Shown piece by piece: positions 73 to 56,016 of a stretch of DNA of 64,000 bases. This DNA comes from a virus: positions 1 through 64,000 of IMG/VR virus record IMGVR_UViG_3300045988_188298. The stretch is one strand, 5' to 3'. The stretch's first letter is position 1. The number at the start of each line of letters is the position of its first letter. The position numbers and the translations under genes are program-made. The notes below the pieces were generated by a model. That model did not search any database, was not told the DNA's origin, and saw only the letters and a list, made by a program, of their open reading frames with translations.

Positions 73-837
73 TTGCTGCATGGTGACTGCCTAAAGTTAA
101 TGCCTAGAGAGCTGGCTGATAATTCTATAGATTTAGTAGTCTGTGATTTACCCTATGGCACAACCAATGCAAAATGGGATTCAGTCTTAGATTTAGAAGC
201 ACTTTGGGAACAGTATAAACGAGTTGTGAAACCAAATGGAGCTATCTTACTCTTTGCACAAACTCCGTTTGATAAAATCCTTGGCTGTTCAAATATAGAG
301 CAGCTAAGATATGAAATCATCTGGGAGAAAACTCATGCCACTGGCCATCTAAATGCAAAGAAGATGCCATTAAAAGCCCATGAAAACATTTTAGTCTTTT
401 ACGAAAAATTACCAACATACAACCCACAAAAAACACAAGGACACACAAGAAAAGTTTCATCTGCCAAATCAAAAGTCCAATCATTAAAAAGGCACAAAGA
501 GAACATGAAAGACGGCAAAGCCATTTATGGGACATATAATGAAACCAGTTATGATTCGACGGAACGTTATCCACGAAGTGTTCAAGTATTCTCAAAAGAT
601 GTTCAGACATCAAAGCTGCATCCAACACAAAAACCAGTGGCCTTATTAGAGTGGTTAATTAAAACTTACTCTAATCCCGGCGACACTGTTTTGGATAATA
701 CAATGGGTTCTGGCTCTACTGGTGTTGCTTGTATTAATACCGGGCGTAAATTTATTGGAATTGAACTGGATGAGAAATATTTCTATATTGCCAATAATCG
801 GATTTTAGAAACAATGAGTGATAAAAATAAAGATTAA
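73..837 (+). CDS. DNA N6-adenine/N4-cytosine methyltransferase (beta-class, PF01555-like). True start may lie upstream, inside or beyond the SSR
   Basis: Catalytic DPPY-like motif DLPYG near the N-terminus and AdoMet motif DNTMGSGSTG near the C-terminus. The ORF stays open upstream through the (ACTC)n tract. The only in-window start is a TTG at 73. Confidence 0.8.
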   Translation: MLHGDCLKLMPRELADNSIDLVVCDLPYGTTNAKWDSVLDLEALWEQYKRVVKPNGAILLFAQTPFDKILGCSNIEQLRYEIIWEKTHATGHLNAKKMPLKAHENILVFYEKLPTYNPQKTQGHTRKVSSAKSKVQSLKRHKENMKDGKAIYGTYNETSYDSTERYPRSVQVFSKDVQTSKLHPTQKPVALLEWLIKTYSNPGDTVLDNTMGSGSTGVACINTGRKFIGIELDEKYFYIANNRILETMSDKNKD

Positions 838-21349: not shown

Positions 21350-22801
21350 ATGGCAACTTTTTTAGCAACGGTTGAGGGATTGAAATTCCTCAAAAACTCA
21401 ATGGACAGTCTTATGGCAGAAACAACCAAAGCTGGTAAGGACACAGTTCTACGTTTCCACAGCACTGATGAGCGTTTCAAGAAGCTTCTAAAATTCTTGC
21501 TAAATAATGATATTACTACAGGGATTTCAGCAAAAAAACTAGAACGCAGGAAGTCATTCAGTGATGATATTCATGAAGAAAATTCTGAACAAAAAATCAC
21601 TAATCTTTTAAGTTTATTAGATTATCTTAAAGTGAATAACACTGGCCGAGATGCGGATATTCGTGTTGTTCATCAATACATCCAAAATCAACCAGAAGAA
21701 CTTCATGACTTCATTGAAAAAGTGGTGACAAAATCTTTGAAACTAGGTGTCACAGCTAAAACGGTCAATGCCGTTTATGGAGAAGGATTTATTCCTGTTT
21801 TTGAAGTTCAACTGGCCAAATCAATTGATAAGCTGGATGCAGAAAAACTAAAAGGTCTTCTAGGATTTATTACATTAAAACTAGATGGCCATAGAACCCT
21901 TGCTCAGATTTCTTTTGATGGATTTGATGGAATTGGTGTACCTGTCACAATTGGTGAACAGGTCAGAATTGGTGGGAGTGTCAACGTAAACTTCTTTACT
22001 CGGCAAGGAAAACCAGTTGCAGGGATGACAGATGTTGCAACAAGCATCTTTAATTCTTTTGATTGGAACAAACTAGCCAAAGTATACCCAGAAGGACTTT
22101 TCTTAGATGGAGAAATCCTGATTACAGAATCAGACAAACCAAAAGAAGAATGGTTTAACGAAACTTCTAAAATCATCCGTAAAGATGGTGAAAAATCTAA
22201 CCTGACTTATCATGTATTTGATATTGTTGGTGTAGATGAATTCTTCCAAGATAAGAAATCTATCCTTACTTATAAAGACCGCCGCAATATGCTAAATGAC
22301 CTTTTCTTGGACAATCCTGATGCAGCAGGCATTGAACTTGTTCCTGTTCTTATGGAATCTAATGATGTCTATAATGACTTAGAGATTATCTACAAACTCT
22401 TTGATGAGCAGGTTGCTCTAGGAGAAGAGGGGTTAATGCTGAATCTTGATACACCATATGAATGTAAACGTCATAATGGCCTCTTAAAGATTAAGCCAAC
22501 TAAATCGGCTGACCTTGAAATTATTGGATTTGAACCCGGTGCTCCATACACTAAGTATGAAAATACTCTAGGAGCATTGATTATGGATTTTGAGGGTGTT
22601 CCTGTTAAGTTTGGTTCTGGCCTTACAGATGAACTTCGAGATGAAATCTGGAATAATCAAGATAAGTACCTTGGGGCTATTGGAGAAATTCAGTATACTT
22701 CTTACAGCAAGAATCAAAACAATGATGAAATCAGTTTGCGTTTCCCTCGTTTTAAAGGGATTCGAACTGACAAATCTGTTGAAGATGTGAATATTGAATA
22801 A
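21350..22801 (+). CDS. ATP-dependent DNA ligase
   Basis: Adenylation motif I KLDGHR. Overall size and C-terminal OB-like region. Promoter module at 21283-21330. Confidence 0.75.
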   Translation: MATFLATVEGLKFLKNSMDSLMAETTKAGKDTVLRFHSTDERFKKLLKFLLNNDITTGISAKKLERRKSFSDDIHEENSEQKITNLLSLLDYLKVNNTGRDADIRVVHQYIQNQPEELHDFIEKVVTKSLKLGVTAKTVNAVYGEGFIPVFEVQLAKSIDKLDAEKLKGLLGFITLKLDGHRTLAQISFDGFDGIGVPVTIGEQVRIGGSVNVNFFTRQGKPVAGMTDVATSIFNSFDWNKLAKVYPEGLFLDGEILITESDKPKEEWFNETSKIIRKDGEKSNLTYHVFDIVGVDEFFQDKKSILTYKDRRNMLNDLFLDNPDAAGIELVPVLMESNDVYNDLEIIYKLFDEQVALGEEGLMLNLDTPYECKRHNGLLKIKPTKSADLEIIGFEPGAPYTKYENTLGALIMDFEGVPVKFGSGLTDELRDEIWNNQDKYLGAIGEIQYTSYSKNQNNDEISLRFPRFKGIRTDKSVEDVNIE

Positions 22802-23262: not shown

Positions 23263-23366
23263 TTCGTTATATATCCAACACAATTTGTATTTGTCTGTTG
23301 CGATTTCTTTTATCATTTGTTATACTGAACTTAACTAAAAGAAAGGAAAAAATAAGGAGAAAGACC

Positions 23367-24671
23367 ATGAGACAAGTCGAACGTCACTGGATTAAAGAAG
23401 GGCATGCCTTATATCCTATCTGTGACGATTTAACCTTTAAAGCTAAGAATCTTTACAATGCAGGGCTGTATCAAATTCGTCAATCCATTTTTGAGCGAAA
23501 CAAATGTGATAATAAAGAAGAAAAACCTTCTGTACTGTCTTGGATTGAATTAGTTTCTCAATTCCGAAAAGAGAAACAAAGTGATATGTTGGCGTTGCCC
23601 TCCAAGGTTTCTACCAACATTTTAAAGAACCTTGGTTCTTCTATTAGCTCTTACTATCAACTCTTAAAGTGTTTTCATGATAAGTCTAACACAAGTGTAT
23701 CTAGCAAACCTCAGTTGCCTCGCTATCTTCACAAGACAAAAGGGCGTTATATAGCAGAGTTCACACATCAGACCTTTTCTAAAAAGAGGGGGTTGAATGG
23801 AGAACTTATTTTATGTCCTAAAGATTTTAGTTTGGTTATCCCAACTAAGGTTAAGAATCCTAAATGTGTTCGTATTGTTCCTAAATTAAAAGCTTTTGTC
23901 ATTGAGGTTGTTTATGAAGTAGAACCAGCTCTTTTAAAACATACTGGAAATTATGCAGCGATTGATTTAGGAATTGATAACCTAGCTAGTGTTACCTTTT
24001 CAAACAACGTGAACCCACTAGTGGTAAAGGGTTCTAAATTAAAGAGCATTAATCAAGGTTACAATCGTTTAATTGCTAAAGCAAAATCTAAACTTCCAAT
24101 GAGTCAAAAGACCAGTCAGCACATCCACCGTCTTTGGAAAAATCGTGAATTGAGGTTTCAATCAGAACTTCATAAAATCACTTCTTTTCTTTCACTTTAT
24201 TTTGACGAGATGGCGATTGAAACAGTCTTTGTAGGAAAAAATTTAGGTTGGAAGCAAGGGGTTTCTTTAAGAAAGAAAAATAAACAAACTTTCACACAAA
24301 TTCCTTTTAATGCTTTCATTTCTCAGTTGACTTATAAATGTTTAATAAGAGGAATAAAAGTATTAGAACAGGAAGAGTCTTACACCTCTAAAGCTAGTTT
24401 CTTAGACGAGGACGAGATTCCTATCTATGAAAAGAACAATCAAAATCAAAATTTTATCTTTTCAGGAAAACGAATTAGCAGAGGGTTATATAAATCTAAA
24501 GATGGTAGCCTCTTGAACGCAGACGTTAATGGGTCTTACAATATCTTAGTGAAAGGACTTTTAACCTTAAACAAATCTCTTAATAGGAAAAACCTTTCTT
24601 TTCATACAAGGAGTTTAAAGAATGATTTAACGTCAGTGTCCAATGTTGACTTGCTTTTACAATACATGTAA
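23367..24671 (+). CDS. tnpB: TnpB, IS607-type. Orphan, no tnpA
   Basis: Shares PRYLHKTKGR and the RuvC-III NADVNGSYNIL motif with the IS607 tnpB at 54775. Start placed at the ATG after RBS AAGGAGAAAGACC. Confidence 0.8.
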   Translation: MRQVERHWIKEGHALYPICDDLTFKAKNLYNAGLYQIRQSIFERNKCDNKEEKPSVLSWIELVSQFRKEKQSDMLALPSKVSTNILKNLGSSISSYYQLLKCFHDKSNTSVSSKPQLPRYLHKTKGRYIAEFTHQTFSKKRGLNGELILCPKDFSLVIPTKVKNPKCVRIVPKLKAFVIEVVYEVEPALLKHTGNYAAIDLGIDNLASVTFSNNVNPLVVKGSKLKSINQGYNRLIAKAKSKLPMSQKTSQHIHRLWKNRELRFQSELHKITSFLSLYFDEMAIETVFVGKNLGWKQGVSLRKKNKQTFTQIPFNAFISQLTYKCLIRGIKVLEQEESYTSKASFLDEDEIPIYEKNNQNQNFIFSGKRISRGLYKSKDGSLLNADVNGSYNILVKGLLTLNKSLNRKNLSFHTRSLKNDLTSVSNVDLLLQYM

Positions 24672-24924: not shown

Positions 24925-26406
24925 TTATTTGTCAGCAGAAGTAATATCTTCAGCTTCAATCACAGGCTGTTCATCTTGCTTCAACTTATTGACAGTCATA
25001 TTGACACCTAAAGCACCAGTCAGTAATTGCCGAATATCAAATCCTGCACCTTGCGACACTTGGTCAATCGTCTGCATGATGTCACCAACCATCTTAGAAG
25101 CATTTCCCTCACCATACATAGTGATTTTATCCACCTTAGTAAGAGGCTCTGCTACGGCGCGTGCGATTTCAGGAAGTTTATCAACAACCATTTCAGTAAT
25201 CGCAGCTTCCTGCATTTTCTTCATAGCTTCCGCTTTCTTATCTAGACCTTGCGCTTCTGCTTCAAGTTTCAAACGAATAGCTTCGGCCTCAGCACGTCCT
25301 TTAGCTTCAATAGCTTCTGCTTCTTGCAATTGTGCAAACTTCTCAGCTTCGGCTTGGGCCTTGCGAGCTTCTGCTTCTTTTTGAGTTTCAAAGAGTTCAG
25401 CTTCCGCCTGACGTTGACGCTCAATTAATTGAGCTTCTGCTGCTTGTTGACGAGCGTATTTTTCTGCTTCTGCCTGTTTGCGTACATTAGCATCCAGCTC
25501 TTGCTCACGAACTTTTACTTCACGTTCCTTAACTTCAGCTTCTTTCTCTTGTTTCATGATGTTAGCTTCAGCGGCCACGCGCTCTTGCTCACGACGTTGA
25601 ATTTCGGCCTCAATGCCTTTAGCAGCGTCTGCCTTAGCCTGAGCAATATCAGCTTCTTGTTTCAAAGCGGCCTGCTTCAACTTCAATTCATTTTGCTTTT
25701 GAGCGATTTCAAGGTCAGCAGCTATCCGTTTGTCATTAGCCAGCTTATCTTGTTCAGCTTCTACTTCTTTACGCTCACGTTCAGCCTTAGCTTTAGCAAT
25801 CAAGGCATCTTTCTTAATTGTTTCAACGTTTTCAATACCAAGATTATCAATTACGCCGCCCTCATCAGAGAATGATTGAACAGTAAAGGCAATGACTTCC
25901 AGCCCCATTTTTTCCAAGTCAGGAGCTACATTATCCTGAACTTTAGAAGCGAATTCTTGACGGTCATTAACCATCTTACGCAATTCCATTTGTCCAATCA
26001 CTTCCCGAAGATTACCTTCCAGAACATCTTGGATGGATTCAGAAATATCAGTAGTTTTCCAATTCAGGAAGTTTTCAGAAGCTTTAGCAATCATTTCATC
26101 GCTAGTACCGATTTTGAGCTTCACAGCAGCATCAGCACGCACGTTAATAAAGTCTTTAGTTGGAACAGATTCAGATGTACGAACATCAGTTGAGAATTGT
26201 TCAATATCCAAATAAGAGCGACGCTCAATAAATGGAATCATGAAACCAGCTTTACCACGAAGATGTCGGAGTTTACGCAATCCTGTAATAACAATAACTT
26301 CATTTGGTTTCGCGTTGACATATCCTTTAACAAGTAAGACCAAAACGCCAATAATGATAAGAACAACTGGGATTACCCAAGTTGGAAATTGTGATAATGT
26401 GTCCAT
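24925..26406 (-). CDS. SPFH/Band-7 flotillin-like protein with a long Ala/Glu/Lys coiled coil
   Basis: N-terminal TM helix, SPFH domain, AEAExK heptad-like repeats. Terminator at 24890-24920. Confidence 0.85.
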   Translation of the reverse strand: MDTLSQFPTWVIPVVLIIIGVLVLLVKGYVNAKPNEVIVITGLRKLRHLRGKAGFMIPFIERRSYLDIEQFSTDVRTSESVPTKDFINVRADAAVKLKIGTSDEMIAKASENFLNWKTTDISESIQDVLEGNLREVIGQMELRKMVNDRQEFASKVQDNVAPDLEKMGLEVIAFTVQSFSDEGGVIDNLGIENVETIKKDALIAKAKAERERKEVEAEQDKLANDKRIAADLEIAQKQNELKLKQAALKQEADIAQAKADAAKGIEAEIQRREQERVAAEANIMKQEKEAEVKEREVKVREQELDANVRKQAEAEKYARQQAAEAQLIERQRQAEAELFETQKEAEARKAQAEAEKFAQLQEAEAIEAKGRAEAEAIRLKLEAEAQGLDKKAEAMKKMQEAAITEMVVDKLPEIARAVAEPLTKVDKITMYGEGNASKMVGDIMQTIDQVSQGAGFDIRQLLTGALGVNMTVNKLKQDEQPVIEAEDITSADK

Positions 26407-35039: not shown

Positions 35040-35489
35040 TTATTTATCTGTACTTCCAAATCCGCCCACGCGCTGCCCAGTAGCTTCATCACCATCAGCA
35101 ATCAAGAACGGCATGAATACCCCTTGCATCATTGCAGTACCAGCTTCAATTACTACTGTTTCATCTGTAATATTAGTGAATTGCGCATGAATGTTTCCAT
35201 CATTATCAGGATTTCCATAGTAATCCTTGTCAATTACTCCAACAGAGTTAGACAGGACAATACCTCGTTTACGAGGATTAGAAGACCGGTCAAACAAATA
35301 AAGGACTTCTCCCTCTTGCATATAAGCTTTAACATTTGTAGGGATTAACTTGATTTCACCCGGTTCAATAGAAACTGTTTTAGCAGCAATGAAATCATAA
35401 CCTGCTGAATGTGCAGTAGACCGTTGTGGCAACAGACTGACATCTGTTTCACCTTTTACCAATTCAAATCCTCGTAGTTTTTGTGACAT
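35040..35489 (-). CDS. dut: dUTP diphosphatase (dUTPase)
   Basis: Motifs AGYDF, RSS, GVIDKDYYG and the C-terminal GQRVGGFGST. Confidence 0.9.
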   Translation of the reverse strand: MSQKLRGFELVKGETDVSLLPQRSTAHSAGYDFIAAKTVSIEPGEIKLIPTNVKAYMQEGEVLYLFDRSSNPRKRGIVLSNSVGVIDKDYYGNPDNDGNIHAQFTNITDETVVIEAGTAMMQGVFMPFLIADGDEATGQRVGGFGSTDK

Positions 35490-37448: not shown

Positions 37449-39836
37449 ATGAAATACAATAACATCAATTCAACCCTTAATCCCTTTGATGATGAATTAA
37501 ACAAAAAGCACGCGCAATACGAGGAGTTTCGTGACAACCTATCAAATGAATCAATTTTCAGTAAAAAGCCGCAGGGATATGTTACACTGAAAAATGATTT
37601 TCCTGTTATCGACCAAGAAGACTGGGCAGTCCGAACCAACTATTATGAACAACTAAAAGAGGTTATTCCTCAACAAGACCTCAAAGCCCTATCTCATGGA
37701 ATTCATGTATGTGAAACAGGATTTAAAACAGAAGAATGGTCTGGTGATTTTAGCTTTGAGGCCGTAAAAACAGGCAAAATCAAGCAAATCAAAGTAACCA
37801 AGCCAACAGACTGGTATAAACACTTGATGGATAATCTAAGTATAAAATACCCTTACTATTTAAGTGAAAATAATCTTTATGTGATTTCTGTTAATGGCTT
37901 CAAAATACCAGTTCTGAAAGATTGGGTAAAGCTATATCAATCTGAGCTAGAAAACAATTCTAACACAGGAACAACAAGCTTTGCTATTGAAGAAAGTAAA
38001 AATAATGCTCTGGCAATATCTAATGACATTAAGACTCAAATGAATCAATTAACTCTTGCTGATTCTTTTGATGTTCCTGAACTGGCAGATATGAAAGAAG
38101 AATTTGAGGTTAAAAAAGCTGAACTTGAATCAATGCTGAAAGAGATGTATCAAAAGCAAGCTGCTATCCGGGAGCAACTGCAACAAGAAATTGAACTCAA
38201 TCAGCAAAAGCTCTTTGTTAAATCAGCAGACCTTTACGCCCTAGAGTACCGTTTAGGTTCTCCAGTAGAATTTAAGCAATTACTGCAAGGAACTCAGGCA
38301 GAACTAGAAACGCCTGTATCTATTCATCAAAAAGTGTATTTCTTGGATGAAGACCTTCCTCGTATTTCTCTGCTTACAAATATTCCAGAAGTGAAAAGTG
38401 TTGAAGAGTTGCTTTCTTCATCACCAGCAGCTCTTAATTATCTAGTGCCATCCAAAAAAGGGATTTCTTTTGTTAAGATGTCTCGCAACAACAAGGATTA
38501 CTCTTTAAACAAAGACCATAAACTAACTTATTCACAAAAATTCCACGCTAATCAAGTTGGAATTATTGTCCGAAACAATGAAAATGTCTGGTTTGCTTGG
38601 TGTGATGCTAATAAAGTCAAATTGACCGAAAACAGCTTTGCATCACGCTCAGTTAGTGAAGAACTGGACAAAGACTTACTTGCATCACGTTACTTCATTT
38701 TTAACTTAATTCTTGGACTTTTAGAACGTGGAGACCTTTTGAGCGTACCTACTCCACCTAAAGATATTGCAGGTCTAGAATTCAACCAATACGTGGTATT
38801 TTCTAACGCTGATGCACAAATTGAGAGTCATCCATATCTTCCATTTGCTGATATTGTAAAACAAGTTAATGACTTCGTTCAAAAGAATGATACGGTTTAT
38901 ATTCCTCAAACTTTAACAGATGGAGAGGTTGATGGCCGTAAATTCAAGGCCAGCCGAGGCAAGAGTAAGGACAGAGTAACAACCTATGGAGCAACGGTCA
39001 GCAAAGGCTTCAATGTTATGAAAGACATTGAATACAAACCTGACTTTACTGAGATTCGTTATGTAAGTGCAAACGGTTATTCAGAAAAAACGCCTAATTT
39101 CAGAATTGATGAAGATGAATTTATTTTAACTTGGGTATTCAATTCAACCGTTATTGATTATTATTTAGCTTCAAAACAAATCGGCGATTATGCTGTTCAA
39201 GGTGTTCGTGTTGACTTTGCCTATATGGCTTCTGTGTTAGCAGAAATCAGCCAAAAACTCAAAGAACAAGAGGAAAAAGAACGTCTGTTAGTTTCTTCTA
39301 AATTGTATGACTTAGGCCTTATTTCTTCTTTCAAACTTCTTAATGGAGTTAAGGTTCTTACTAAACGGTCAGCCAAAACTTATGAAAAATGGGTTTCTGG
39401 TCTATCTGATAAAGAATTAGAAGAATACAAGGATTACAAAGTCATCAACAAGGCACAAGAACTGTTGGCAGCACAACAGAAGACACGTTATTTTGTTGGC
39501 TTTGAAACAGATGGAAAGATTTTCTATCTTAATAAAAAACTTGGCGGTTCTTATTCTTACGGATATTACAAACATTACCAAATTAGTCAGTTTGAGACTT
39601 ATGCAAAAGATGAAAATATCTTTGTTGTGTTGACTGATTTGCCAGTCCAAGTTTATACTTCAAAAACAATTGCTGAGAAGCTTCGTAAAGAAATGTTGAA
39701 TGTAGAAAAAACATTCTCATTTAATGGTGAAACTTATGAGAAGCCAGAGTGGCGCGTGTTTGAGTTCTCCAAAGAAGAAGTTTCAAAATACCACAAACAT
39801 ATCAGCTTAGAAGAAATGAAAAATGGAAAGGATTAG
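37449..39836 (+). CDS. Large hypothetical protein (795 aa) with a central coiled coil
   Basis: Long ORF. Extended -10 TGATACAAT promoter at 37405-37413. RBS AGGAGAA. Confidence 0.55.
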   Translation: MKYNNINSTLNPFDDELNKKHAQYEEFRDNLSNESIFSKKPQGYVTLKNDFPVIDQEDWAVRTNYYEQLKEVIPQQDLKALSHGIHVCETGFKTEEWSGDFSFEAVKTGKIKQIKVTKPTDWYKHLMDNLSIKYPYYLSENNLYVISVNGFKIPVLKDWVKLYQSELENNSNTGTTSFAIEESKNNALAISNDIKTQMNQLTLADSFDVPELADMKEEFEVKKAELESMLKEMYQKQAAIREQLQQEIELNQQKLFVKSADLYALEYRLGSPVEFKQLLQGTQAELETPVSIHQKVYFLDEDLPRISLLTNIPEVKSVEELLSSSPAALNYLVPSKKGISFVKMSRNNKDYSLNKDHKLTYSQKFHANQVGIIVRNNENVWFAWCDANKVKLTENSFASRSVSEELDKDLLASRYFIFNLILGLLERGDLLSVPTPPKDIAGLEFNQYVVFSNADAQIESHPYLPFADIVKQVNDFVQKNDTVYIPQTLTDGEVDGRKFKASRGKSKDRVTTYGATVSKGFNVMKDIEYKPDFTEIRYVSANGYSEKTPNFRIDEDEFILTWVFNSTVIDYYLASKQIGDYAVQGVRVDFAYMASVLAEISQKLKEQEEKERLLVSSKLYDLGLISSFKLLNGVKVLTKRSAKTYEKWVSGLSDKELEEYKDYKVINKAQELLAAQQKTRYFVGFETDGKIFYLNKKLGGSYSYGYYKHYQISQFETYAKDENIFVVLTDLPVQVYTSKTIAEKLRKEMLNVEKTFSFNGETYEKPEWRVFEFSKEEVSKYHKHISLEEMKNGKD

Positions 39837-40349: not shown

Positions 40350-41322
40350 ATGAATCGTTACAAAACAATTGATTTATTTGCTGGAATTGGTGGTCTTCGT
40401 TTGGGCTTTGACCAAACCAATCGGACGGAGACTGTATTTTCTAGCGAGATAGATAAATTTGCAAGACAAACATATCAAGCAAATTTTGGAACTGAACCGG
40501 GGGGGGGATATTACTAAGATAGAAGCATCTGATATTCCTGACCACGATATTCTCTTGGCAGGTTTTCCTTGTCAAGCTTTCTCACATGCCGGACTAAAGA
40601 AAGGTTTTGAAGATATTCGAGGAACTTTATTCTTTGATGTCGCTAGGATTTTGAAAGAAAAGAGGCCCAAAGCGTTTTTGTTAGAAAATGTAAAAGGCCT
40701 TATAGCGCATGACAATGGCAATACATTCAAAGTTATTTTAGAGACATTGAATGAGTTGGGTTATGATGTTCATTATAAAATCCTCAACACAAAAGATTTC
40801 AACATCCCTCAGAATAGGGAACGTATCTATATTGTTGGATTTTTAAAAGAAGTAGTTCTAAATTCTTCTATCTTTGATTTCCCTATTGAAGAACTAAAGA
40901 AACCGGGATATTTACAAGTTTTTAAAAAAGCTGTTCTGGGAGATGTTTTAGAAAAACATGCTTCAGATAACTACACTATATCTGACAAAGCATGGAAAGG
41001 TCTCAAAAACAGAAAGAAGCGGAATCAGGAATCTGGTAAAGGTTTTGGTTATTCCTTGGTCAATCCTAAATCTGAATACACAAGAACTTTGGTTGCTCAT
41101 TATTGCAAGGATGGGAATGAAATTCTTTTAGAACAAGATGGGAAGAATCCTAGAAAACTAACTGAACGAGAATGTGCTAGACTACAAGGGTTTCCAGAAG
41201 ATTTTGTTTTTCCTTGCAGCAAAACACAGACCTACAAACAATTAGGTAATTCTGTTACAGTTCCAGTTATTTATAAAATTGCTCGCAAGATTATTATGAA
41301 ACTAGATAAAGACACAAAATAA
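40350..41322 (+). pseudogene. DNA cytosine-5 methyltransferase interrupted by a +1 frameshift at a G9 homopolymer (40499-40507)
   Basis: Motif I DLFAGIGG in frame 0. Then GDITKI, PCQAFS and ENV motifs in frame +1 (ORF 40459-41322). Eight Gs would restore a single ORF reading EPGGDITKI. Confidence 0.85.
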
Positions 41323-41358
41323 AAGACTAGAATTATTTATTTCTAGTCTTTTTTATTA

Positions 41359-42690
41359 TTATTTCTTGCGGCGTTTGAACAATGTTCCACTACCTAGTCC
41401 AAGGGCAGCCAAGCCTCCTGCAAACTGCATACCGATAGCTTCAGCACCAGTCTTAGGAAGTGTTTTGTTTCCTACTGTTGGTTTTGGAGTTTCCTTTTTA
41501 CCAACTTCTTGCTTTTGAGGAGTTTCTGATGGGGTTGCTGGTGTTTTTGATTTATCACCATCATCTTCTTTCTTCTCAGGAGCTTTTTCTGGAGTTTCTG
41601 TTACTTTTGGAGTTTCTTCTTTTTTCTCCAGATTTGGCTTTTCTGTAGTTGGTGTTTCTACTGGTTTCTCTACTGGCTTTTTAGGAAGCTCATTTGGTTC
41701 TGGCTTATCAGTCAGATGTTCGTTAGGGGTAGGAAAAACTGATTCTCGGATAGTTTCAACCGGTTTTTCAGCAGGCTTTTCAACTTCCTTAGCTTTCACA
41801 TTGTCCTTTTGAGACTTGACAGTTGTAGCATCTTTATCTAGCTTTTCTAGTAGAGTTCCACCAACCTTACGAAGAACAACAACTTCAACCTTACCTTTTT
41901 GAACGATAGATTTAGAAATTGTGATATTTCCAGTTGCTTCATCAAATTTGAATCCATCTTTAACAAATTCAGCTTCTTTTCTGAAATGGTCAAAAATGTA
42001 ATCAAGCTTACCAGTTTTTGGGTTGCGGAAAAGTTTAACATTGGTTACATTGCTAGTCTTGTCAGCAGTGGCAGGCTTATTGTTGAAGAATAAAACTGTC
42101 AAAGCTTTTACATTGTCATCTGTTTTGACATAAAAGTTTTGTTCGTCTGATGTCAAATAAAGATTTTTTTGTTCTGCATCAGTCTTTTTAGCTTCATCCT
42201 TTTGAGGCGCTGCTGATGGAGCTTTCAATGGAGCTGTAGAAATGCTTGTTTGTACCTTTTTAGGGGCAGCAGGTGCAGGAGTAGAAGTCTGAGCATTTGT
42301 ATCTGTTGCAGGCTTTGCAGATGGTGCTTTTAGTGGAGCTGTAGAAACAGATGTTTGCACAGTTGCTTGTGGTTTATCACCAAAGATTTCTTTTCGAACA
42401 GCAGCCGTATCTTCGGATTCTTTTGTTGGTTGGGCCTTAACATCCTTGCCTACAATGTCCATATAGTTGTCAGTGCTTTTAGCTTCTACTTTATCTGTAG
42501 TTGTGGTTACTTTATCTGGCGTTGCTGTTTTATCTGTGGTAGGGTTTGCAGCATCTGATGTGGTTGTAGTGGCTGAATTTTCCTGTTTTACAATAGGAGT
42601 ATTTTCAGCAGCAAAAACATTTTGCGCAGAACCTAGCCCAACAATACCAGCAAGTGCTAGAGAACTAGCCAATCGAAATTTCTTATTCAT
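41359..42690 (-). CDS. LPxTG cell-wall-anchored surface protein
   Basis: Signal peptide. C-terminal LPKTG, hydrophobic segment and KRRKK tail. Terminator at 41330-41358. Confidence 0.8.
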   Translation of the reverse strand: MNKKFRLASSLALAGIVGLGSAQNVFAAENTPIVKQENSATTTTSDAANPTTDKTATPDKVTTTTDKVEAKSTDNYMDIVGKDVKAQPTKESEDTAAVRKEIFGDKPQATVQTSVSTAPLKAPSAKPATDTNAQTSTPAPAAPKKVQTSISTAPLKAPSAAPQKDEAKKTDAEQKNLYLTSDEQNFYVKTDDNVKALTVLFFNNKPATADKTSNVTNVKLFRNPKTGKLDYIFDHFRKEAEFVKDGFKFDEATGNITISKSIVQKGKVEVVVLRKVGGTLLEKLDKDATTVKSQKDNVKAKEVEKPAEKPVETIRESVFPTPNEHLTDKPEPNELPKKPVEKPVETPTTEKPNLEKKEETPKVTETPEKAPEKKEDDGDKSKTPATPSETPQKQEVGKKETPKPTVGNKTLPKTGAEAIGMQFAGGLAALGLGSGTLFKRRKK

Positions 42691-46596: not shown

Positions 46597-47548
46597 TTAT
46601 TGTAGGCTGTCTTTAATAGCTTCAGCTAGTCTTTTTATAACTGGCACAGAAACACTGTTGCCTGCCTGTTTATATAATCTGGAATTGCTTTGATTAGGGA
46701 ATTTATAGTCTTCTGGAAAGCCTTGGGCATTGAAACATTCTCGTGGGGTTAGTTTCCTAATCCGTCCATCTTCAGTTAAAATCAAAGGAACATTGCTGCC
46801 ACCCGTGCCCATGTTGGCTGTCAAAGTTGGAATTAATCCGTTTTTATTTTCTCTGACGTACTTTCGTCTCCATTGATAAATCCTGTCATTTCTTGTTATT
46901 CCTTCCTCTAACTTATCATAAAATTTATTTTTCTTCTTAGAATAATAATACTTTTCATCAACAGGGTTCTTGAAATCAATAACATCATCTAGTTTTGTAG
47001 TTAGTGGAATTTCATCAGGCATTGTAAAGTTATTGAAGTCTTCAATGTCTCTAAAGGCTACAATATAGATTCGTTCTCGTCCTTGTGGAATATTACCATA
47101 TTTGGCTGAATTCATCACTTTATAAGATATATAATAACCAAGGTCTTCTAGTGTTCTAGTAATCACGGAGAAAGTTCTTCCTTCATCATGTGACACTAGG
47201 TTTTTTACATTTTCAAAAAACGCAACTCTAGGCTTTCTTTCAGATATAACTCTAGCAACATCAAAGAATAAAGTTCCTCTAGCGTCACTAAATCCTAATT
47301 GTTTGCCTGCTAGGGAAAATGCTTGGCAAGGGAAACCAGCAAGCAAGACATCAAGGTCCGGCAATTCTGATGCTTCTATAGTTGTAATATCTCTCACATC
47401 TACTTTTATGCCAAAATTTTCTTCAAACGTTTGAGCTGGATATACATCAATTTCATTGGCATAGACAGTTGTAAAACCTGCTTGTGCGAAGCCTAAGTCC
47501 ACCCCCCACTCCTGAAAATAGAGAGGCCATTTTCAATTCTTTTTTCAT
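46597..47548 (-). pseudogene. DNA cytosine-5 methyltransferase with a frameshift at a G6 tract (C6 on the plus strand, 47502-47507) separating motif I from the rest
   Basis: An upstream ATG at 47548 gives MKKELKMASLFSGVGG (motif I), then the frame is lost. The main ORF from GTG at 47502 carries PCQAFS and ENV motifs. A -1 or +2 change in the tract restores one ORF. Confidence 0.8.
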
Positions 47549-47679
47549 AATAAAAATTTACCTACTTTTATTTATTTTTTATAGCATATTACATTTTATC
47601 ATTTTTTGAAGCATAAAACAAAAAAGAGATGTAAACAATTTATTTTACATCTCTTTTCTATTGAATATTAATTAATTAA

Positions 47680-47897: not shown

Positions 47898-50800
47898 CTA
47901 ATCTTCTTGTTTTTTAGATTTTATTGTTAATCCTAAAGCAACCAATCCAAGAATAGCTCCAAGAACTTGAAGTGTTCCTGTTTCTGTTTGACCAGTTTTT
48001 GGAAGTTCTTTCTTAGGAACTTCAGTCTTAATCACTGATGGTGCAGGAGCAGGAGTTTCGTCTTTCTTAGGTTCTTCTGGGATTTTTAGTTCTTCCAATT
48101 CAACAACAGGAGCGTCTTTTGGAACTTCGGTAACAACTAATTCAGTCAGTTCGTGAACCGGCGCTTCGTTAGGCACTTCGGTCAAGACTTTCTCTGGAAT
48201 TTCATGAATAGGCGCATCAGATGGAATCTCTGTAAGGATTTTCTCTGGCAGCTCATGAATTGGAGCGTCGCCCGGAATTTCAGTCAATACCTTTTCCGGC
48301 AGTTCGTGAATTGGAGATTCAGATGGAACTTCTGTTAGAACTTTTTCTGGCAACTCATGAATAGGAGCATCACCCGGTACTTGTTTTTCAACGCGGACGT
48401 AATAGTGAGTAGAGATATGGTCTTCTACTGTCGTCAGCTTAGAATAGACATATTCCTCACGTTCTCCGATAAACAATGGAGCAAGCACAACTCCTTTGAC
48501 AGTAGGAGCAATTTCTCGCTCTACGCCGTTTTCAACCGTTACGAAACGAGTAACATTAAGTGCACCAAAATCACTAATAGGGGCATTTTCAGGAACTTCT
48601 GAAACGGAGCGGTCATAGTAATGAGTTGTAACTCCATCTTCTTTGACAGTTTTACCGTTATATTGGAAGCTGCCTACATACATAGGAGCTTCATGAGTGC
48701 CCTCTTCAGCAGGTTTCACTTCAATTTCACCATTATCAGTAACAGCAATATAACGAGTAGCTTCACGAACTTCTGGTGTCACACTTGGTGCATCAATAGG
48801 CTTTTCACCTTTTACATAATGATAGTAGTGAGTGGTAATACCAGTCACACCGTCATTGGCATCAGTGTGGTCAAAGAAGTATTGGTGGAAGTCATCACCC
48901 AACCACATAGGGGCAGGAAATGTACCTTTTTGTTCATCACGAATTTCACTAAAGCTGCCATCTTCTTCAATTACCAAGAAACGTGTAATTTCTTGCATTT
49001 CAGGATTCACAGTTGGAGCATCAATTGGCTTATCTTTTTTCACTGCATCATAGTAATGAGTATGAATACCATCTTCAACCTTTGTTTGACCAGAATAATG
49101 ATATTTCTCATTTTGAAGAAATGCAGGAGCTTCATGAATACCTTCAAGAGATGGAGCGATTTCTTCTTCCACACCATTTTCCCCAACGGTTACAAATCGA
49201 GTAACATCAGAGACTTCTCCGGTCATTTTTGGAGCTTCATTAGGAACAGTGGTTTGGATTTTCACATAGTAATGAGTAGTAATTCCAGTTATTCCATCAT
49301 TAGGTGTAGTGTGGTCAAATTGATAGCTTCCAATAATGCTAGGCGCTGGCAGTGTTCCCTCTTGGGTTTCTGCAACCTCTACTTCTTCACCTTGCTCATT
49401 TACAAGAACAAAACGAGTAACTTCACGCATAACTGGTGTTACAGATGGTGCATCTGTAGGTAATTCGTGTGTTTCTGGTGTTGCCGTTGTTTCATAAATG
49501 AAATGTTGGCGAGAAATAGTAAGGCCTGTTGCAGGATTTTCTCCGACCCATGACTTAGGAAGAGTTACACCGTTTTGAACTTCTTTATCTGTAAATCCAA
49601 CAACGCCTGTCCACTTCTTGTTGCCCTTGTATTCAAGCAGCATACGGAAGCCGGCTAATTTATTATTTTCTACAGTTGGCAAAGTTTGCTCAGGAGTGTA
49701 GACACCCGGAGTGTAAGGATTATGTTCTGCATTTTCATCACCATCCCATTCAAAATGGTCAGTCATTTCGTGAGGAGTAATTTTTTCTCCGTTACGCATG
49801 AAGTAAATCTCACCGCTTTCATGGAAGTTCTTGTATACTTCTGTTTCTTCTTCTTTAGTCAACAAGAAATCATAGTAAAGAGATTTTGGTGTTACTCTTG
49901 GTTGTTGTGGCCCTCCAAATCCAAATGGATTTTCTAGACCTGAGACTGGTAATTCTGATGGCCCTAAACCAAACTCATTAACACCGTGGTCAGCAGGTTT
50001 CACATGCAGCAATGTATAATTTCTTACAATTGGCGCGTGCACTTCTTCACCATTAGTATTAGCAAAAGTCAATACCTGACTGAATTCAGATTTTGTCAAT
50101 GTGCTTTCTGGCAAATTAGCCATCCAGCGTGTTACACGAACAGTTGGGTTTGGTGTTTTAGAGTAATAATCACTTGCGTGTTCGCTGCCTTTAACTTCTT
50201 TCGGAAGATAAATTTCTGTTGAAAGTCGGAAACGTTGAGACACACCATACCCAAAATCACCATCCACTTTCAATGTAATTCCTTTACCTCGGCTGATAAA
50301 AGCTCCTGAACCGTAATAATAATTAGGTTTGTCTGGAGAATTCCAGCCTAATTTATATTCACTAGAATTGACTTTGTAGCGTCCTTTAGTCCAGTAATTA
50401 TTTAGGTTATAGAAGTTTTCGGTTTCCGGATTAATTGTTCCGCTGAAATTTTTTACTCCTGAACCCGGAATCTGAACTGCTTTATCGGCTGGGTTGAGAG
50501 TAATACTCTCCCAGTGTCCGCCCGGAGACAGAATTGGCTCTGGTGTATATCTCAATTCCGCTGATTCAAAGAAAATGTTTTTCCCATTGAGGATTGTAAA
50601 TCTACCAATTGTTTCACCTCTGGAATTTAGCTCGTTAAAGCCGTCATAGGTGCTGGTGATTTCATCACCCTCTGGCACACCTGTTTCATCATAATGAGAA
50701 ACATTTCGGAACACTCGAACACGTTGGTTTGGTGAGTACAGCTTAGTTGATTTTACATATGTTTCTCCAGTTTGTACTTCTGGACTTAAAACCTCATTAA

Positions 50801-52097
50801 CAGTTTTCGTTTCACCATTGGCATCCGTATATTCAATGTGAGCAACAAATTTATTCTCGTTTGAAATACGGTGGCCTGTACCATATTCTTTATGAACAGT
50901 ATAACGATACATTTCGTGGACAGCATACAAGGTTTTTCCTGTATTTTCGTCCAATTCTTGTCCATTTTCATCATAGTAATATGACTTAGCTACAATGCGT
51001 TGAGTACCGCCACGCGCAACATCTGAACCGAATAAAACACCGTTATAAGGATTTGCATCAACTTCAGCAATCACATTATGATTAGAACCCAAGCTTCTTT
51101 GTAACTCGAATGTCCGAACAATCTTAGCAATCTTTTTCTTTTCGCCATCAACAATCATATAGCTGTTAGATAGATTGGTATATGTAGCTGTTATACGGTC
51201 AGATTCACGAAATACCACGCGCTGCACACCTGTATCTCCCAATTGAGAAGATACATAATCATTTCGTGTAACTTTTGCAAGTTTTTGGAAACGAAGGTTT
51301 GAATAATCAACTTCATTTGCTGGTTTCTCAAACTCTTTTGATTTTGCTTCGCTCAGATAACGAACTTCACCAGTGATAGCAACCCTTGCATTTTCTTCAT
51401 TCCCAAGATGTAGATTTTGATTCTTCATGGCTTCTCGGATAGCATCACCCTTAGAACTCATGAGTTCTTCATAATCTTTCTTCATTTCTTGGTCAATATT
51501 GAACCGCTCATAGGCAGTGCTATTAATATTTCTTTTCTCTTCGCGAATCCTTTCGTATTCTGACCATTTTTCCATAAGTTGCTGTTTAATCTTTTCAGCT
51601 TCTTGCTTAGACTCTTCTTTTACAGCTTCAAGAGAAGCTTGGTCAGATGGAACTTCTTTTTCAACTTCTTCAACTGTAAAACCGTTTTGGTTAAGATTGT
51701 TTACCAATTCAGTATAACTTCCGTCAACATATTTAGTCGTAGACAAATTTGTATTTGTTGTTGCTCCATCAACCTCGGCAGAGCGTTTAGCTGCGTTCAC
51801 GCGCGTGTAATCGTTATTTTCAACAATTTCACGATTGTCTTGAACATTAGCCGGCAGTGGTGAGTTTTTAACTGCATCAGACAATTGTACACCTGATTGA
51901 CTGTTAAAGTCATCAATGCCTGTATTTACGGTTTGAGAGCTAGTCGGGCTAGTATTTACAGTTTCCTCAGCAGAAACGATTTGCGGAGCAAGAATAAGGC
52001 TTGCACCAAGCATCAAAGACAAAACTCCAATAGCTGTCTTACGGATTCCGAATTTTTCCTTTTTCCCTTGGATTAGATATTGTTTGTAGCTTTTCAT
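47898..52097 (-). CDS. Giant LPxTG surface adhesin (1399 aa) with a YSIRK-type signal peptide, about six 70-aa tandem repeats ending in THYY, and six 12-aa (A/S)PIHELPEKVLTE repeats
   Basis: N-terminal KxYKQ...FGIRKTAIGVLS. C-terminal LPKTG, hydrophobic segment and KSKKQED tail. Internal repeats are visible in the translation. Confidence 0.9.
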   Translation of the reverse strand: MKSYKQYLIQGKKEKFGIRKTAIGVLSLMLGASLILAPQIVSAEETVNTSPTSSQTVNTGIDDFNSQSGVQLSDAVKNSPLPANVQDNREIVENNDYTRVNAAKRSAEVDGATTNTNLSTTKYVDGSYTELVNNLNQNGFTVEEVEKEVPSDQASLEAVKEESKQEAEKIKQQLMEKWSEYERIREEKRNINSTAYERFNIDQEMKKDYEELMSSKGDAIREAMKNQNLHLGNEENARVAITGEVRYLSEAKSKEFEKPANEVDYSNLRFQKLAKVTRNDYVSSQLGDTGVQRVVFRESDRITATYTNLSNSYMIVDGEKKKIAKIVRTFELQRSLGSNHNVIAEVDANPYNGVLFGSDVARGGTQRIVAKSYYYDENGQELDENTGKTLYAVHEMYRYTVHKEYGTGHRISNENKFVAHIEYTDANGETKTVNEVLSPEVQTGETYVKSTKLYSPNQRVRVFRNVSHYDETGVPEGDEITSTYDGFNELNSRGETIGRFTILNGKNIFFESAELRYTPEPILSPGGHWESITLNPADKAVQIPGSGVKNFSGTINPETENFYNLNNYWTKGRYKVNSSEYKLGWNSPDKPNYYYGSGAFISRGKGITLKVDGDFGYGVSQRFRLSTEIYLPKEVKGSEHASDYYSKTPNPTVRVTRWMANLPESTLTKSEFSQVLTFANTNGEEVHAPIVRNYTLLHVKPADHGVNEFGLGPSELPVSGLENPFGFGGPQQPRVTPKSLYYDFLLTKEEETEVYKNFHESGEIYFMRNGEKITPHEMTDHFEWDGDENAEHNPYTPGVYTPEQTLPTVENNKLAGFRMLLEYKGNKKWTGVVGFTDKEVQNGVTLPKSWVGENPATGLTISRQHFIYETTATPETHELPTDAPSVTPVMREVTRFVLVNEQGEEVEVAETQEGTLPAPSIIGSYQFDHTTPNDGITGITTHYYVKIQTTVPNEAPKMTGEVSDVTRFVTVGENGVEEEIAPSLEGIHEAPAFLQNEKYHYSGQTKVEDGIHTHYYDAVKKDKPIDAPTVNPEMQEITRFLVIEEDGSFSEIRDEQKGTFPAPMWLGDDFHQYFFDHTDANDGVTGITTHYYHYVKGEKPIDAPSVTPEVREATRYIAVTDNGEIEVKPAEEGTHEAPMYVGSFQYNGKTVKEDGVTTHYYDRSVSEVPENAPISDFGALNVTRFVTVENGVEREIAPTVKGVVLAPLFIGEREEYVYSKLTTVEDHISTHYYVRVEKQVPGDAPIHELPEKVLTEVPSESPIHELPEKVLTEIPGDAPIHELPEKILTEIPSDAPIHEIPEKVLTEVPNEAPVHELTELVVTEVPKDAPVVELEELKIPEEPKKDETPAPAPSVIKTEVPKKELPKTGQTETGTLQVLGAILGLVALGLTIKSKKQED

Positions 52098-54083: not shown

Positions 54084-54788
54084 ATGAAAGAAAGGAGGCG
54101 TTTTATTTTGTATAAAAAGTCAATGATTTTAAATAAATCAACTTATAAGACAGGAGAAGTCGCTGCTCTTCTAGGAGTATCAATTCAAACTGTTATCAAT
54201 TATTGTGAGATGGGGCACATCCCCTTTTATAAAACAGAACATGGGCATCGTCGTATTCTTGCGGAGGACGTTTACAATTACCTAGTTTCTCTAAATATGG
54301 CGTATGATGAAAATTCTAATTCTAATGATACAAATTCTACTTATACTAAATCAGACGTAATCTATGCTCGTGTATCTACACATAAGCAAGCAGAACGAGG
54401 TGATTTAGAGCAGCAAGTGGAAAAAGTAATGTTGTATGCAATTCATCAAAACGTAAACAACCTCATTGTTAAAACAGATATTGCTTCAGGGTTGGATGAT
54501 AATCGTAAAAATCTACTCTCTTTAATTGATATGGTACAAAAAGGGGAGGTTTCTCGAATTTTTGTTTTAGATAAAGACCGTTTAACTAGCTTTGGTTATC
54601 CTTACTTGAAGAAAATTTGCGACTTCCATGGAGTCTCTATCATTGTTGTTTTAGATGAGATTGACATTAAAACTCAATCAGAAGAACTGGCAGAGGATAT
54701 TATCACTCTCATTCATTCTTTTTCAGAGAAATTATATGACCTAAGACAAAAAATTAAGAAAGAAATAAAATGTAATGAAGAAAGTTAA
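54084..54788 (+). CDS. tnpA: IS607-family TnpA serine recombinase (MerR-like HTH plus resolvase catalytic domain)
   Basis: HTH region YKTGEVAALLGVSIQTVINYC. Catalytic VIYARVSTHKQ. The true start is probably the internal TTG or ATG after RBS AAGGAGG. Confidence 0.9.
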   Translation: MKERRRFILYKKSMILNKSTYKTGEVAALLGVSIQTVINYCEMGHIPFYKTEHGHRRILAEDVYNYLVSLNMAYDENSNSNDTNSTYTKSDVIYARVSTHKQAERGDLEQQVEKVMLYAIHQNVNNLIVKTDIASGLDDNRKNLLSLIDMVQKGEVSRIFVLDKDRLTSFGYPYLKKICDFHGVSIIVVLDEIDIKTQSEELAEDIITLIHSFSEKLYDLRQKIKKEIKCNEES

Positions 54789-56016
54789 ACAAGAACCTGA
54801 GATTATCTTATCTGAAAGACATATCATCTCATCTTCTCACCCTTATTTTTCAGAGTGTGACCACTTGACATTCTTAGGGAAGAATTTATATAACGCAACT
54901 CTATTTTATCAACGAGCTTCTTTTTTCAAAAAAGAATTTCAAAACTACTATGCTGTAAATAAAGTTTTCACCCATGAAAATCAGATAGATTACCGAGCTT
55001 TGCCTGCTAAAGTTTCAAAACAAGTTCAGATGCTAGTAGATAAAAGTTTTAAAAGTTACTTTGCTTTAGTGAGGAAAAAGGTTAAAGGAGAATATAGCTC
55101 TCCTGTCCGTATCCCTCGTTATTTGCACAAAACAAAAGGGCGTTGCACCCTCCCTTATCCTAAAGATGCTTTATCTTTGAAGAATGAGGGAGTAGTTGCA
55201 CTTTCTAAGACAGGAATTAGAATCCAAACGAAAATTAAAAGAGAAAAAATACAAGGTGCTCGCATAGTTCCTAAAGGAAACCATTTTGTTATTGAGATTC
55301 TTTATAAAGAGCAAAAGAAGAAACCTGTATCTGAGAAGATTCAGAACGTTGCTTTTATTGACCCCGGTTTAAACAACTTAATGACCGTGACCAGCAATGT
55401 CTGTTCCCCTCTTCTATATAGCGGTAAGAACTTAAAGTCAATGAACCAGTTGGCAAATAAAAAGATAGCACAAGTGAAAAGTTCTTTGAGCAAACGAGGG
55501 TTATATAGTTCTCCCCTTTTAATTTCTATTTACAACAAAAGGAACAGACGTATAAAAGATTGTTTACACAAAATATCAACTCATTTAGTGAATCAATTCG
55601 TTTCGCACAAGATTGATACCGTTATTTTTGGACATAATCTAGGGCAGAAACAAGACATTAAATTAGGCGTTGTTACCAATCAAAATTTTGTGCAAATTCC
55701 TTTTTATCAGCTCATTACTCTCTTGCAATATAAATGTGAATTGCAAGGCATCCGCTTTATAACAACAGAAGAATCTTATACCAGTAAGTGCAGCTTCTTG
55801 GATTTAGAAGAAATTGCTGAACAAAAAGAATATGTAGGCAAAAGAGTGAAGCGTGGCCTTTTTCAATCAAAAGAAGGTGTCCAGATTAACGCTGATGTAA
55901 ATGGCTCTTTGAATATTGGAAGGAAATATTTAACGAAACTAGGTCTTTATACAGATACTTTACATAAGGAATTAATTTATCACATGGCAAATCCTAAACG
56001 AATTTGTCTAGCTTAA
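54775..56016 (+). CDS. tnpB: IS607-family TnpB (RuvC-like RNA-guided nuclease type)
   Basis: PRYLHKTKGR motif and RuvC-III NADVNGSLNIG. Overlaps the tnpA stop. Confidence 0.9.
   Translation: MKKVKQEPEIILSERHIISSSHPYFSECDHLTFLGKNLYNATLFYQRASFFKKEFQNYYAVNKVFTHENQIDYRALPAKVSKQVQMLVDKSFKSYFALVRKKVKGEYSSPVRIPRYLHKTKGRCTLPYPKDALSLKNEGVVALSKTGIRIQTKIKREKIQGARIVPKGNHFVIEILYKEQKKKPVSEKIQNVAFIDPGLNNLMTVTSNVCSPLLYSGKNLKSMNQLANKKIAQVKSSLSKRGLYSSPLLISIYNKRNRRIKDCLHKISTHLVNQFVSHKIDTVIFGHNLGQKQDIKLGVVTNQNFVQIPFYQLITLLQYKCELQGIRFITTEESYTSKCSFLDLEEIAEQKEYVGKRVKRGLFQSKEGVQINADVNGSLNIGRKYLTKLGLYTDTLHKELIYHMANPKRICLA

Follow-up and report, generated by a model that had tools for sequence, protein, structure and literature searches.

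The stretch of DNA analyzed here covers positions 1 to 64,000 of the IMG/VR virus record IMGVR_UViG_3300045988_188298 and is hereafter called the window. It contains a gene for a cytosine-5 (C5) DNA methyltransferase, MTase1, which is split between two reading frames at a run of nine guanines (G9). Why is this gene split? A preliminary description of the sequence left two possibilities: phase variation by slipped-strand mispairing, or an error in sequencing the homopolymer. The window corresponds to about a quarter of an element of ~233 kb, and about 80 related sequences were compared with the window locus. The comparison makes it highly probable that the G9 is a real, heritable, and hypermutable poly-G contingency locus in an orphan C5 methylase, and that a second methylase, MTase2, has a twin switch; the two would serve as switchable self-protection. 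The second poly-G-switched C5 methyltransferase, 6 kb away, and the giant mobile element that carries both genes were not part of the preliminary description.

MTase1 is split at a poly-G tract

Reading of the open reading frames (ORFs) reproduced exactly the coordinates proposed for the split, with the G run at 40499-40507 (tract 1; Table 1). The frame-0 ORF starts with ATG at 40350 and encodes MNRYKTIDLFAGIGG...GTEPGGGYY*. It includes motif I and soon terminates, as described, at a stop codon at 40515-40517, two sense codons beyond the codon where the G run ends. GDITKI, GFPCQAFS, and LLENVKG, which had been assigned to the +1 frame, are indeed read there in a 287-amino acid (aa) ORF, as are PQNRER (QxRxR), the target-recognition region, and GNSVTVPV. 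This ORF lacks motif I and is therefore predicted to be inactive alone. A single uninterrupted reading frame for MTase1 is absent in the window, where G9 parts motif I from the rest of the enzyme.

Deletion of one G generates a 323-aa ORF reading ...EPGGDITKI..., in agreement with the earlier claim that a tract of eight Gs (G8) would restore an intact gene. The repaired protein matches PF00145 end to end (E-value 6.9e-111, profile positions 1-323 of 324). It also matches TIGR00675 (dcm; 9e-110) and M.HhaI in PDB (8e-72). The C5 motifs I (DLFAGIGG), IV (GFPCQAFS), VI (LLENVKG), VIII (PQNRER), and X (LGNSVTVPV) are all present and are invariant in the alignment with relatives. Its sequence leaves no ambiguity about the family to which MTase1 belongs. 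When in frame, the tract reads CCG GGG GGG GAT, which encodes P-G-G just ahead of the GDITKI motif and includes a CCGGG site. The tract-made residue, x in P-x-G-D, is Gly in MTase1 and H, N, A, or F in relatives.

The tract is exceptional in its sequence context. The preliminary description called it the longest G run in an AT-rich window, and it is the sole run of G or C longer than 6 in the window, whose G+C content is 33%. The next longest are two C6 runs. From the base composition of the window, ~0.003 runs of at least nine Gs are expected. Tract 1 and the tract of MTase2 (tract 2, described below) are composed of the rarest synonymous codons: CCG accounts for 6.5% of Pro, GGG for 12.9% of Gly, and GTG for 13.1% of Val codons in the element. 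For this composition of rarest codons, P is ~0.001 in tract 1 and ~0.002 in tract 2. Among the 20 other Gly-Gly dipeptides in the window, none is encoded by GGGGGG.

Length variation of tract 1 among relatives

Non-duplicate loci covering tract 1 were pooled. Because the query protein that retrieved most of them already had a particular frame state, the ON and OFF frequencies of MTase1 are biased in the following counts: G9 in 19 loci, G8 in 12, G7 in 9, G10 in 2, G6 in one low-coverage contig, and no tract in 21. A scan by DNA patterns blind to the tract yielded 11 tract-less loci, four G8 loci, and one G7 locus. In the protein clusters of tract-bearing alleles, 323-aa proteins are mixed with 287-aa and 255-aa fragments, corresponding to ~108 intact and ~44 split contigs. 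With G6, G7, G9, or G10, MTase1 is truncated after 55-57 residues. The split into 55-aa and 287-aa products seen in the window is also called in other G9 loci.

If the extra G were an artefact of sequencing or assembly, the true gene would have G8 and be intact. Homopolymers are error-prone on some platforms, and some related contigs have a coverage of 3-5 according to their SPAdes names. However, the same length recurs in independent assemblies. The exact 287-aa product occurs on 11 contigs, which come from different samples and several studies and were assembled from short reads with MEGAHIT or SPAdes or in Logan. Two contigs that match the window over 11-12 kb with 100% identity, as well as a 99.8% identical relative from another sample, all show the combination of G9 in tract 1 and G6 in tract 2. 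G9 is the commonest OFF length, and it is distributed across lineages that are 15% apart in protein sequence. An artefact at this position is extremely unlikely.

The changes in length appear to be recent. MTase1 alleles with identical sequences over 972 nt differ between samples only in their tracts, G8 versus G9 in one case and G7 versus G10 in another. The presence of identical alleles in both ON and OFF forms indicates recent changes in both states, and the tract thus changes more rapidly than point mutations accumulate. When the tract is reset to G8, a clean 323-aa ORF is obtained from every fully covered copy of MTase1 (48 loci). The median dN/dS (ratio of nonsynonymous to synonymous substitution rates) is 0.12 for all alleles and 0.20 for tract-bearing alleles. 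In every tract-bearing locus the tract is unbroken, and its length stays near the in-frame value, between 6 and 10. Such frequent and heritable changes in tract length among relatives fit neither a sequencing error nor a dead gene.

It is also conceivable that G9 still gives a full-length enzyme by transcriptional slippage or programmed ribosomal frameshifting. Long homopolymers can make RNA polymerase slip, and G9 could plausibly yield a few in-frame transcripts in this way. Against such recoding, G8 is the commonest tract state in the unbiased sample and among the cluster contigs, and the observed lengths fall in all three frames (G6, G7, G9, and G10), which is beyond rescue by any single programmed shift. 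Neither a slippery heptamer nor a stimulatory structure was seen, though no search aimed at them was made. Recoding as the explanation of the split is very unlikely, and at most it would make the switch leaky.

Two related contigs, from k119 and k127 assemblies of what are probably the same cohort data, both end at the position corresponding to 40389 of the window, 110 nt upstream of tract 1. Another contig from the same sample starts at 40369, 20 nt ahead of that position. The break may represent strain mixture or tract heterogeneity. It does not depend on k-mer size. As possible evidence that tract lengths are mixed in a sample it was set aside as uninformative, because both assemblies probably derive from one cohort.

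A natural allele without the tract

A lineage of MTase1 without the tract is present on the same element. It has E-P-F-G-D, encoded by GAG CCT TTT GGA GAT, instead of E-P-G-G-D. In the E-P-F-G cluster, all 15 listed members, which stand for ~135 contigs, are 323 aa in length. The ten E-P-F-G loci that were fetched are all intact, and, wherever coverage is complete, the frame is unbroken in the 11 tract-less loci recovered by the blind scans. Thus, frameshifts in MTase1 are seen only in tract-bearing alleles, which also argues against the artefact discussed above.

Of the two explanations in the preliminary description, phase variation is the one supported: tract lengths from 6 to 10, identical alleles in different states, purifying selection, and the tract-less allele as a natural control all support it. 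The sequencing error is disfavoured by the recurrence of the same G9 in independent assemblies. Phase variation is supported here at the level of populations, by the comparison of assembled sequences. Three properties of a contingency locus are present: a repeat inside the ORF sets the frame, its length differs between otherwise identical genes, and selection has preserved the remainder of the gene although many copies are OFF.

MTase2 has a second poly-G tract

MTase2 is encoded on the opposite strand, ~6 kb from MTase1. Its tract lies within motif I, which in the window reads ...TCA GGA GTG GGG GGT GGA C...; this run of six Gs breaks the frame after 31 codons. With G8, motif I reads F-S-G-V-G-G-V-D-L-G (...GGA GTG GGG GGG GTx GAC), and the repaired protein matches TIGR00675 with an E-value of 1e-104.

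Tract 2 was sampled without bias, since the loci were retrieved via other genes. Among 41 related loci, G6 is found in 11, G7 in 16, G8 (ON) in 10, G9 in 3, and G10 in 1. Identical 954-nt alleles of MTase2 have different tract lengths (9/7, 7/10, and 7/6). The gene shows 21 nucleotide alleles, with differences at up to 132 of 954 positions (13.8%), and its median dN/dS is 0.076. After repair of the tract, 26 of the 27 copies encode the 317-aa protein, and the remaining one has a second lesion.

The MTase2 data bear on the possibility that both genes are decaying pseudogenes. The methylases would then be unneeded, frameshifts would be the first lesions on an irreversible path to gene loss, and the tracts would merely be the most mutable positions. 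In favour of this, neither gene is ON in the window, only 10 of the 41 MTase2 loci keep the frame, which is roughly the share expected of random frames, and one copy has a second lesion. However, outside the tract, all fully covered copies of MTase1 and all but one of those of MTase2 are intact, dN/dS remains at 0.08-0.2 over nucleotide divergence of up to 13.8%, and uninterrupted tracts whose lengths cluster at 6-10 are not expected from decay. It is quite unlikely that these genes are pseudogenes.

A terminator-like hairpin lies upstream of MTase2, and another hairpin directly follows its stop codon. The genes after MTase2 have a strong promoter-like site of their own. The hairpin and the separate promoter on the 3' side suggest that MTase2 is monocistronic.

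Both methylases are orphans related to restriction-linked enzymes

MTase1 shows 62-65% identity over 98-99% of its length to proteins named ScrFIA or DsaV, which are fused to a helix-turn-helix (HTH) domain. These homologues have 60-90 extra N-terminal residues with PF01381; MTase1 lacks this domain and starts at motif I. MTase2 shows 64-68% identity to proteins named "modification methylase Bsp6I". From these relationships, the target of MTase1 is probably CCNGG (SsoII/ScrFI/DsaV type), and that of MTase2 is probably GCNGC (Bsp6I type).

The homologues are linked to restriction endonucleases. Homologues of MTase2 adjoin a PF09504 (RE_Bsp6I) gene in the chromosome of Streptococcus anginosus (CP118036.1) and in oral metagenomes. 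Their motif I is encoded by GGC GTC GGA GGA ATC or GGA GTT GGA GGC ATT, with no G tract. An HTH-fused homologue of MTase1 from the same oral cohorts is placed back to back with a gene for a 305-aa endonuclease of the EcoRII-C family, in an SsoII-like arrangement. As judged from these sequences, the poly-G tract is a derived feature, absent from the restriction-linked homologues.

Searches of the genes flanking MTase1 and MTase2 against Pfam, PHROGs, PADLOC, and NCBIfam detected no endonuclease or defence family, although very divergent endonucleases could escape such searches. These searches covered two ORFs upstream of MTase1 (795 and 127 aa) and three downstream of MTase2 (a 73-aa HTH ORF and ORFs of 472 and 204 aa), and the only matches were an HD-phosphohydrolase-like PHROG and a generic HTH. 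Loci with the methylase OFF still have intact neighboring ORFs. An active cognate endonuclease among them is therefore unlikely, because it would be lethal. The 73-aa HTH and 472-aa ORFs were considered as a pair of controller and cognate endonuclease, and an active system of this kind was rejected: the pair is intact in many MTase2-OFF loci and has its own promoter behind a terminator. By these searches, MTase1 and MTase2 are orphan methylases without a detectable partner endonuclease.

Restriction-site avoidance

Several restriction sites are missing or nearly missing from the window. GATC is absent against ~190 expected, CCWGG is absent against 31-44 expected, and GATATC is absent against 16 expected, while GGWCC occurs twice against 21-31 expected. 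GGCC and CCGG show no depletion. In 164 kb of sequence from nine related loci, the pattern of sites is the same. Such depletion is strong restriction-site avoidance by the element. The sites predicted for the two methylases escape it: CCSGG occurs 25 times (9-15 expected) and GCNGC 110 times (47-81 expected).

This pattern bears on the function of the switches. They could act mainly as a phasevarion, a phase-variable regulon, in which ON and OFF states of 5-methylcytosine (5mC) alter the gene expression of the element or its host, rather than as a defence against restriction. A phase-variable methyltransferase without a working endonuclease is the defining part of a phasevarion, and both genes are orphans. 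Two switches would provide four epigenetic states, and the many surface-protein genes of the element resemble typical members of such regulons. On the other hand, described phasevarions are mostly chromosomal Type III or Type I N6-adenine systems. Moreover, both enzymes are very close to the modification methylases that belong to Type II systems from the same habitat, and, together with the extreme site avoidance, this favours restriction evasion. Regulation as the main role is rather unlikely, and a phasevarion-like role would be compatible with switchable self-protection.

Proposed mechanism and its weak points

The element would be an extrachromosomal or viral-like element of ~230-250 kb from human oral streptococci. 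Slipped-strand mispairing at replication would add Gs to the tracts or remove them. G8 would be ON, with motif I joined in frame to the rest of MTase1, and G6, G7, G9, and G10 would be OFF. Lengths other than G8 would cut the enzyme before (MTase1) or within (MTase2) the core that binds S-adenosylmethionine and performs catalysis. The window represents a double OFF state (G9/G6). As the two switches are independent, the element can have four methylation states.

In the ON state, the retained CCSGG and GCNGC sites would be shielded from hosts with SsoII/ScrFI-type or Bsp6I-type endonucleases. SsoII-like/EcoRII-C and RE_Bsp6I systems of this type are present in oral streptococci or oral metagenomes. 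In the OFF state, the cost of methylation would be lower in hosts without those endonucleases, or the element may escape from 5mC-dependent Type IV enzymes of the SauUSI type. SauUSI recognizes S5mCNGS (PMC3141236). This sequence fits both predicted methylation products, and escape from Type IV restriction is thus a plausible benefit of the OFF state.

The two genes may constitute a phase-variable anti-restriction module with two switches and four states. Members of the population in the ON state would be pre-adapted to hosts with matching endonucleases, and those in the OFF state to hosts with S5mCNGS-specific Type IV enzymes. In that case the element, not the bacterium, would hedge its bets on host range. 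We offer this extension tentatively, as a possibility that is somewhat more doubtful than not. A limited literature search found no description of host-range bet-hedging through phase-variable anti-restriction on a mobile element.

Several points weigh against reading the tracts as working switches for self-protection. The mixing of states within a population and their reversibility are deduced from comparison between samples. Certain loci may have been assembled more than once from one read set, and coverage is only 3-5x in several contigs. The ON and OFF frequencies of MTase1 are biased by retrieval, and the unbiased sample is small. MTase2 is in frame in 10 of 41 loci, which is near random drift of the frame, and frequency alone therefore gives no case for selection for the ON state. 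Among the four-fold degenerate sites of MTase2, 61% are polymorphic and the three inside tract 2 never vary; with P of about 0.06, this is only suggestive of selection on mutability. Finally, the predicted specificities depend on 62-68% identity to named enzymes.

The mobile element and its other genes

The element is uncultivated, and the syntenic relatives of the window are contigs of 227-248 kb, uniform in size, from many human oral metagenome assemblies. The contig ena:ERZ27262897:k119_90689 (232.7 kb) and a Logan contig of ERR589654 are those with 100% identity to the window over 11-12 kb. Three relatives of 223-234 kb are filed as viral genomes in IMG/VR. Close protein relatives of MTase1 in the protein collection show 85-95% identity. 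No match to the locus was found by megablast among PLSDB plasmids and INPHARED phages. Identity with a described oral jumbo phage was also considered and was not supported, as the list of Yahara et al. contains no Streptococcus element of ~233 kb.

The gene content of the window is a mixture of phage-like and plasmid-like functions (Table 1). In addition to the tabulated genes, it encodes NADAR, YopX, GIY-YIG, resolvase, and SocA/Panacea-domain proteins, and most other ORFs have no family match. No capsid, terminase, or conjugation genes were seen within the 64-kb window. The third DNA methyltransferase, of the N6/N4 type, does not contain a G/C tract. Surface-protein genes include LPXTG, GbpC-like, and collagen-binding types.

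Some neighboring genes are variable among the related loci. The GbpC-like gene differs in size, encoding 1213-1507 aa. The 795-aa ORF directly upstream of MTase1 is split or shorter in several relatives (502 + 254 aa, 179 + 440 aa, 605 + 174 aa, and 455 + 203 aa in one locus each, and 409 aa in two loci), and it may be another variable gene. At one position upstream of the dUTPase gene, TnpB copies are present or absent in related loci, alternating with a GIY-YIG gene. This gain and loss of TnpB points to active turnover of the IS200/IS605 type.

Table 1. Features of the window, with positions numbered from its first nucleotide
Feature	Position	Strand	Remarks
MTase1, C5-cytosine DNA methyltransferase, OFF phase	40350..41322	+	323 aa if tract = G8
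Poly-G tract 1	40499..40507	+	exactly G9; G8 in frame
Truncated N-terminal MTase1 product	40350..40517	+	55 aa; motif I (DLFAGIGG) only
+1-frame ORF of MTase1	40459..41322	+	287 aa from TTG; without motif I
Bidirectional terminator-like hairpin	41321..41352		12-bp stem with a T tail on each strand; separates MTase1 from the convergent gene for an LPXTG protein
MTase2, C5-cytosine methyltransferase, M.Bsp6I-like, OFF	46597..47548	-	317 aa if tract = G8
Poly-G tract 2, within motif I	47502..47507	-	C6 on + strand, G6 on coding strand; G8 in frame
Terminator-like hairpin upstream of MTase2	47617..47662	-	insulates MTase2 from the GbpC-like gene and a 38-aa ORF
Hairpin directly after MTase2 stop codon	46562..46589		
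Strong promoter-like site for genes after MTase2	46555-46526	-	11/12 matches, extended -10
DNA methyltransferase, N6/N4 type	73-837	+	PF01555, E-value 7e-36; phrog_67
ORF directly upstream of MTase1	37449-39836	+	795 aa; no match in Pfam, PHROGs, PADLOC, NCBIfam
GbpC-like LPXTG protein	47898-52097	-	1399 aa; tandem PxHELPEK-type repeats
LPXTG protein	41359-42690	-	443 aa
Collagen-binding/Big_8 protein	14605-15936	+	
TnpB (OrfB_IS605 / Cas12f-like TNB)	13253-14407	+	
TnpB (OrfB_IS605 / Cas12f-like TNB)	23298-24671	+	
TnpB (OrfB_IS605 / Cas12f-like TNB)	54775-56016	+	
ATP-dependent DNA ligase	21350-22801	+	
SPFH/flotillin	24925-26406	-	
dUTPase	35040-35489	-	

Comparison with known systems

The element resembles Inocles, giant extrachromosomal elements of oral Streptococcus. 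Inocles are circular and 245-395 kb in size, with ~32% G+C (24% in one of four groups), and they are rich in insertion sequences (IS) and encode LPXTG proteins (PMC12340149). The resemblance lies in the human oral origin, the 33% G+C, the approximate size (227-248 kb in the relatives), the load of IS and TnpB genes, and the LPXTG proteins. The marker protein of Inocles, InoC, is ~454 aa in length with an N-terminal PF13814 replication-relaxation domain (PMC12340149). This domain is not among the Pfam hits of the scanned ORFs of the window, which covers 64 of ~233 kb. The Inocle paper makes no mention of methyltransferases or phase variation.

The two methylases are similar to M.SsoII, M.ScrFIA, and M.DsaV (CCNGG) and to M.Bsp6I (GCNGC), the methylases of Type II restriction-modification systems. 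Identity is 62-68% along the whole length and extends to the variable region, and all C5 motifs are present. Unlike those enzymes, they have no partner endonuclease and contain poly-G tracts, and MTase1 has no HTH domain. They are also similar to the orphan anti-restriction methyltransferases by which phages and plasmids methylate themselves and evade host restriction, being stand-alone enzymes that would copy host restriction specificities on an element that avoids restriction sites. In the literature searched, however, the anti-restriction methylases of phages and plasmids are expressed constitutively or temporally, and are not switched by repeats. A homopolymer-switched methylase encoded by a phage or plasmid was not found, which is a weak negative from a limited search.

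Phasevarions of Type III mod genes and Type I hsd genes are found in Haemophilus, Neisseria, Helicobacter, Moraxella, and Streptococcus suis (PMC4417156, PMC6902483). Like them, the present genes have simple-sequence-repeat frameshifting that would randomly switch a DNA methyltransferase between ON and OFF, with effects on methylation across the genome. Phasevarion enzymes are N6-adenine methylases from chromosomal Type III or Type I systems; their repeats are usually tetra- or pentanucleotides, and they are linked to gene regulation. The present enzymes, by contrast, are orphan C5 methylases of a Type II-like kind, encoded on a mobile element by genes with mononucleotide tracts.

The closest parallel in mechanism is a CpG C5-methyltransferase of Mycoplasma agalactiae. 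In this gene, an intragenic poly(G) of 6-11 determines whether the full-length or a truncated protein is produced, most strains are OFF, and variation within a culture was demonstrated by fragment-length analysis (PMC9465063). Both systems have an orphan-type C5 (dcm-family) methylase in which an intragenic poly-G decides the frame. The M. agalactiae gene is a chromosomal gene of a Mollicute, with CpG specificity and a tract in the middle of the gene, whereas here two enzymes are encoded on a giant mobile element. The tracts here are just ahead of GDITKI or inside motif I, a tract-less allele coexists, and the variation is known between samples.

If the switches work as proposed, the element would vary its own epigenetic "passport", affecting which streptococcal strains it enters or persists in. 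Tract length could also mark the history of elements and hosts in oral metagenomes. Since gene callers split both genes, catalogues of such elements under-count functional methylases.

Repeat tracts that switch methyltransferases are already known from pathogens, in chromosomal systems of Type III and Type I, and from the mycoplasma C5 CpG methylase. What is new is that the genes lie on a widespread giant mobile element of Gram-positive oral bacteria, that two different restriction-derived orphan C5 methylases each have a switch, and that a tract-less allele coexists with the tract-bearing ones.

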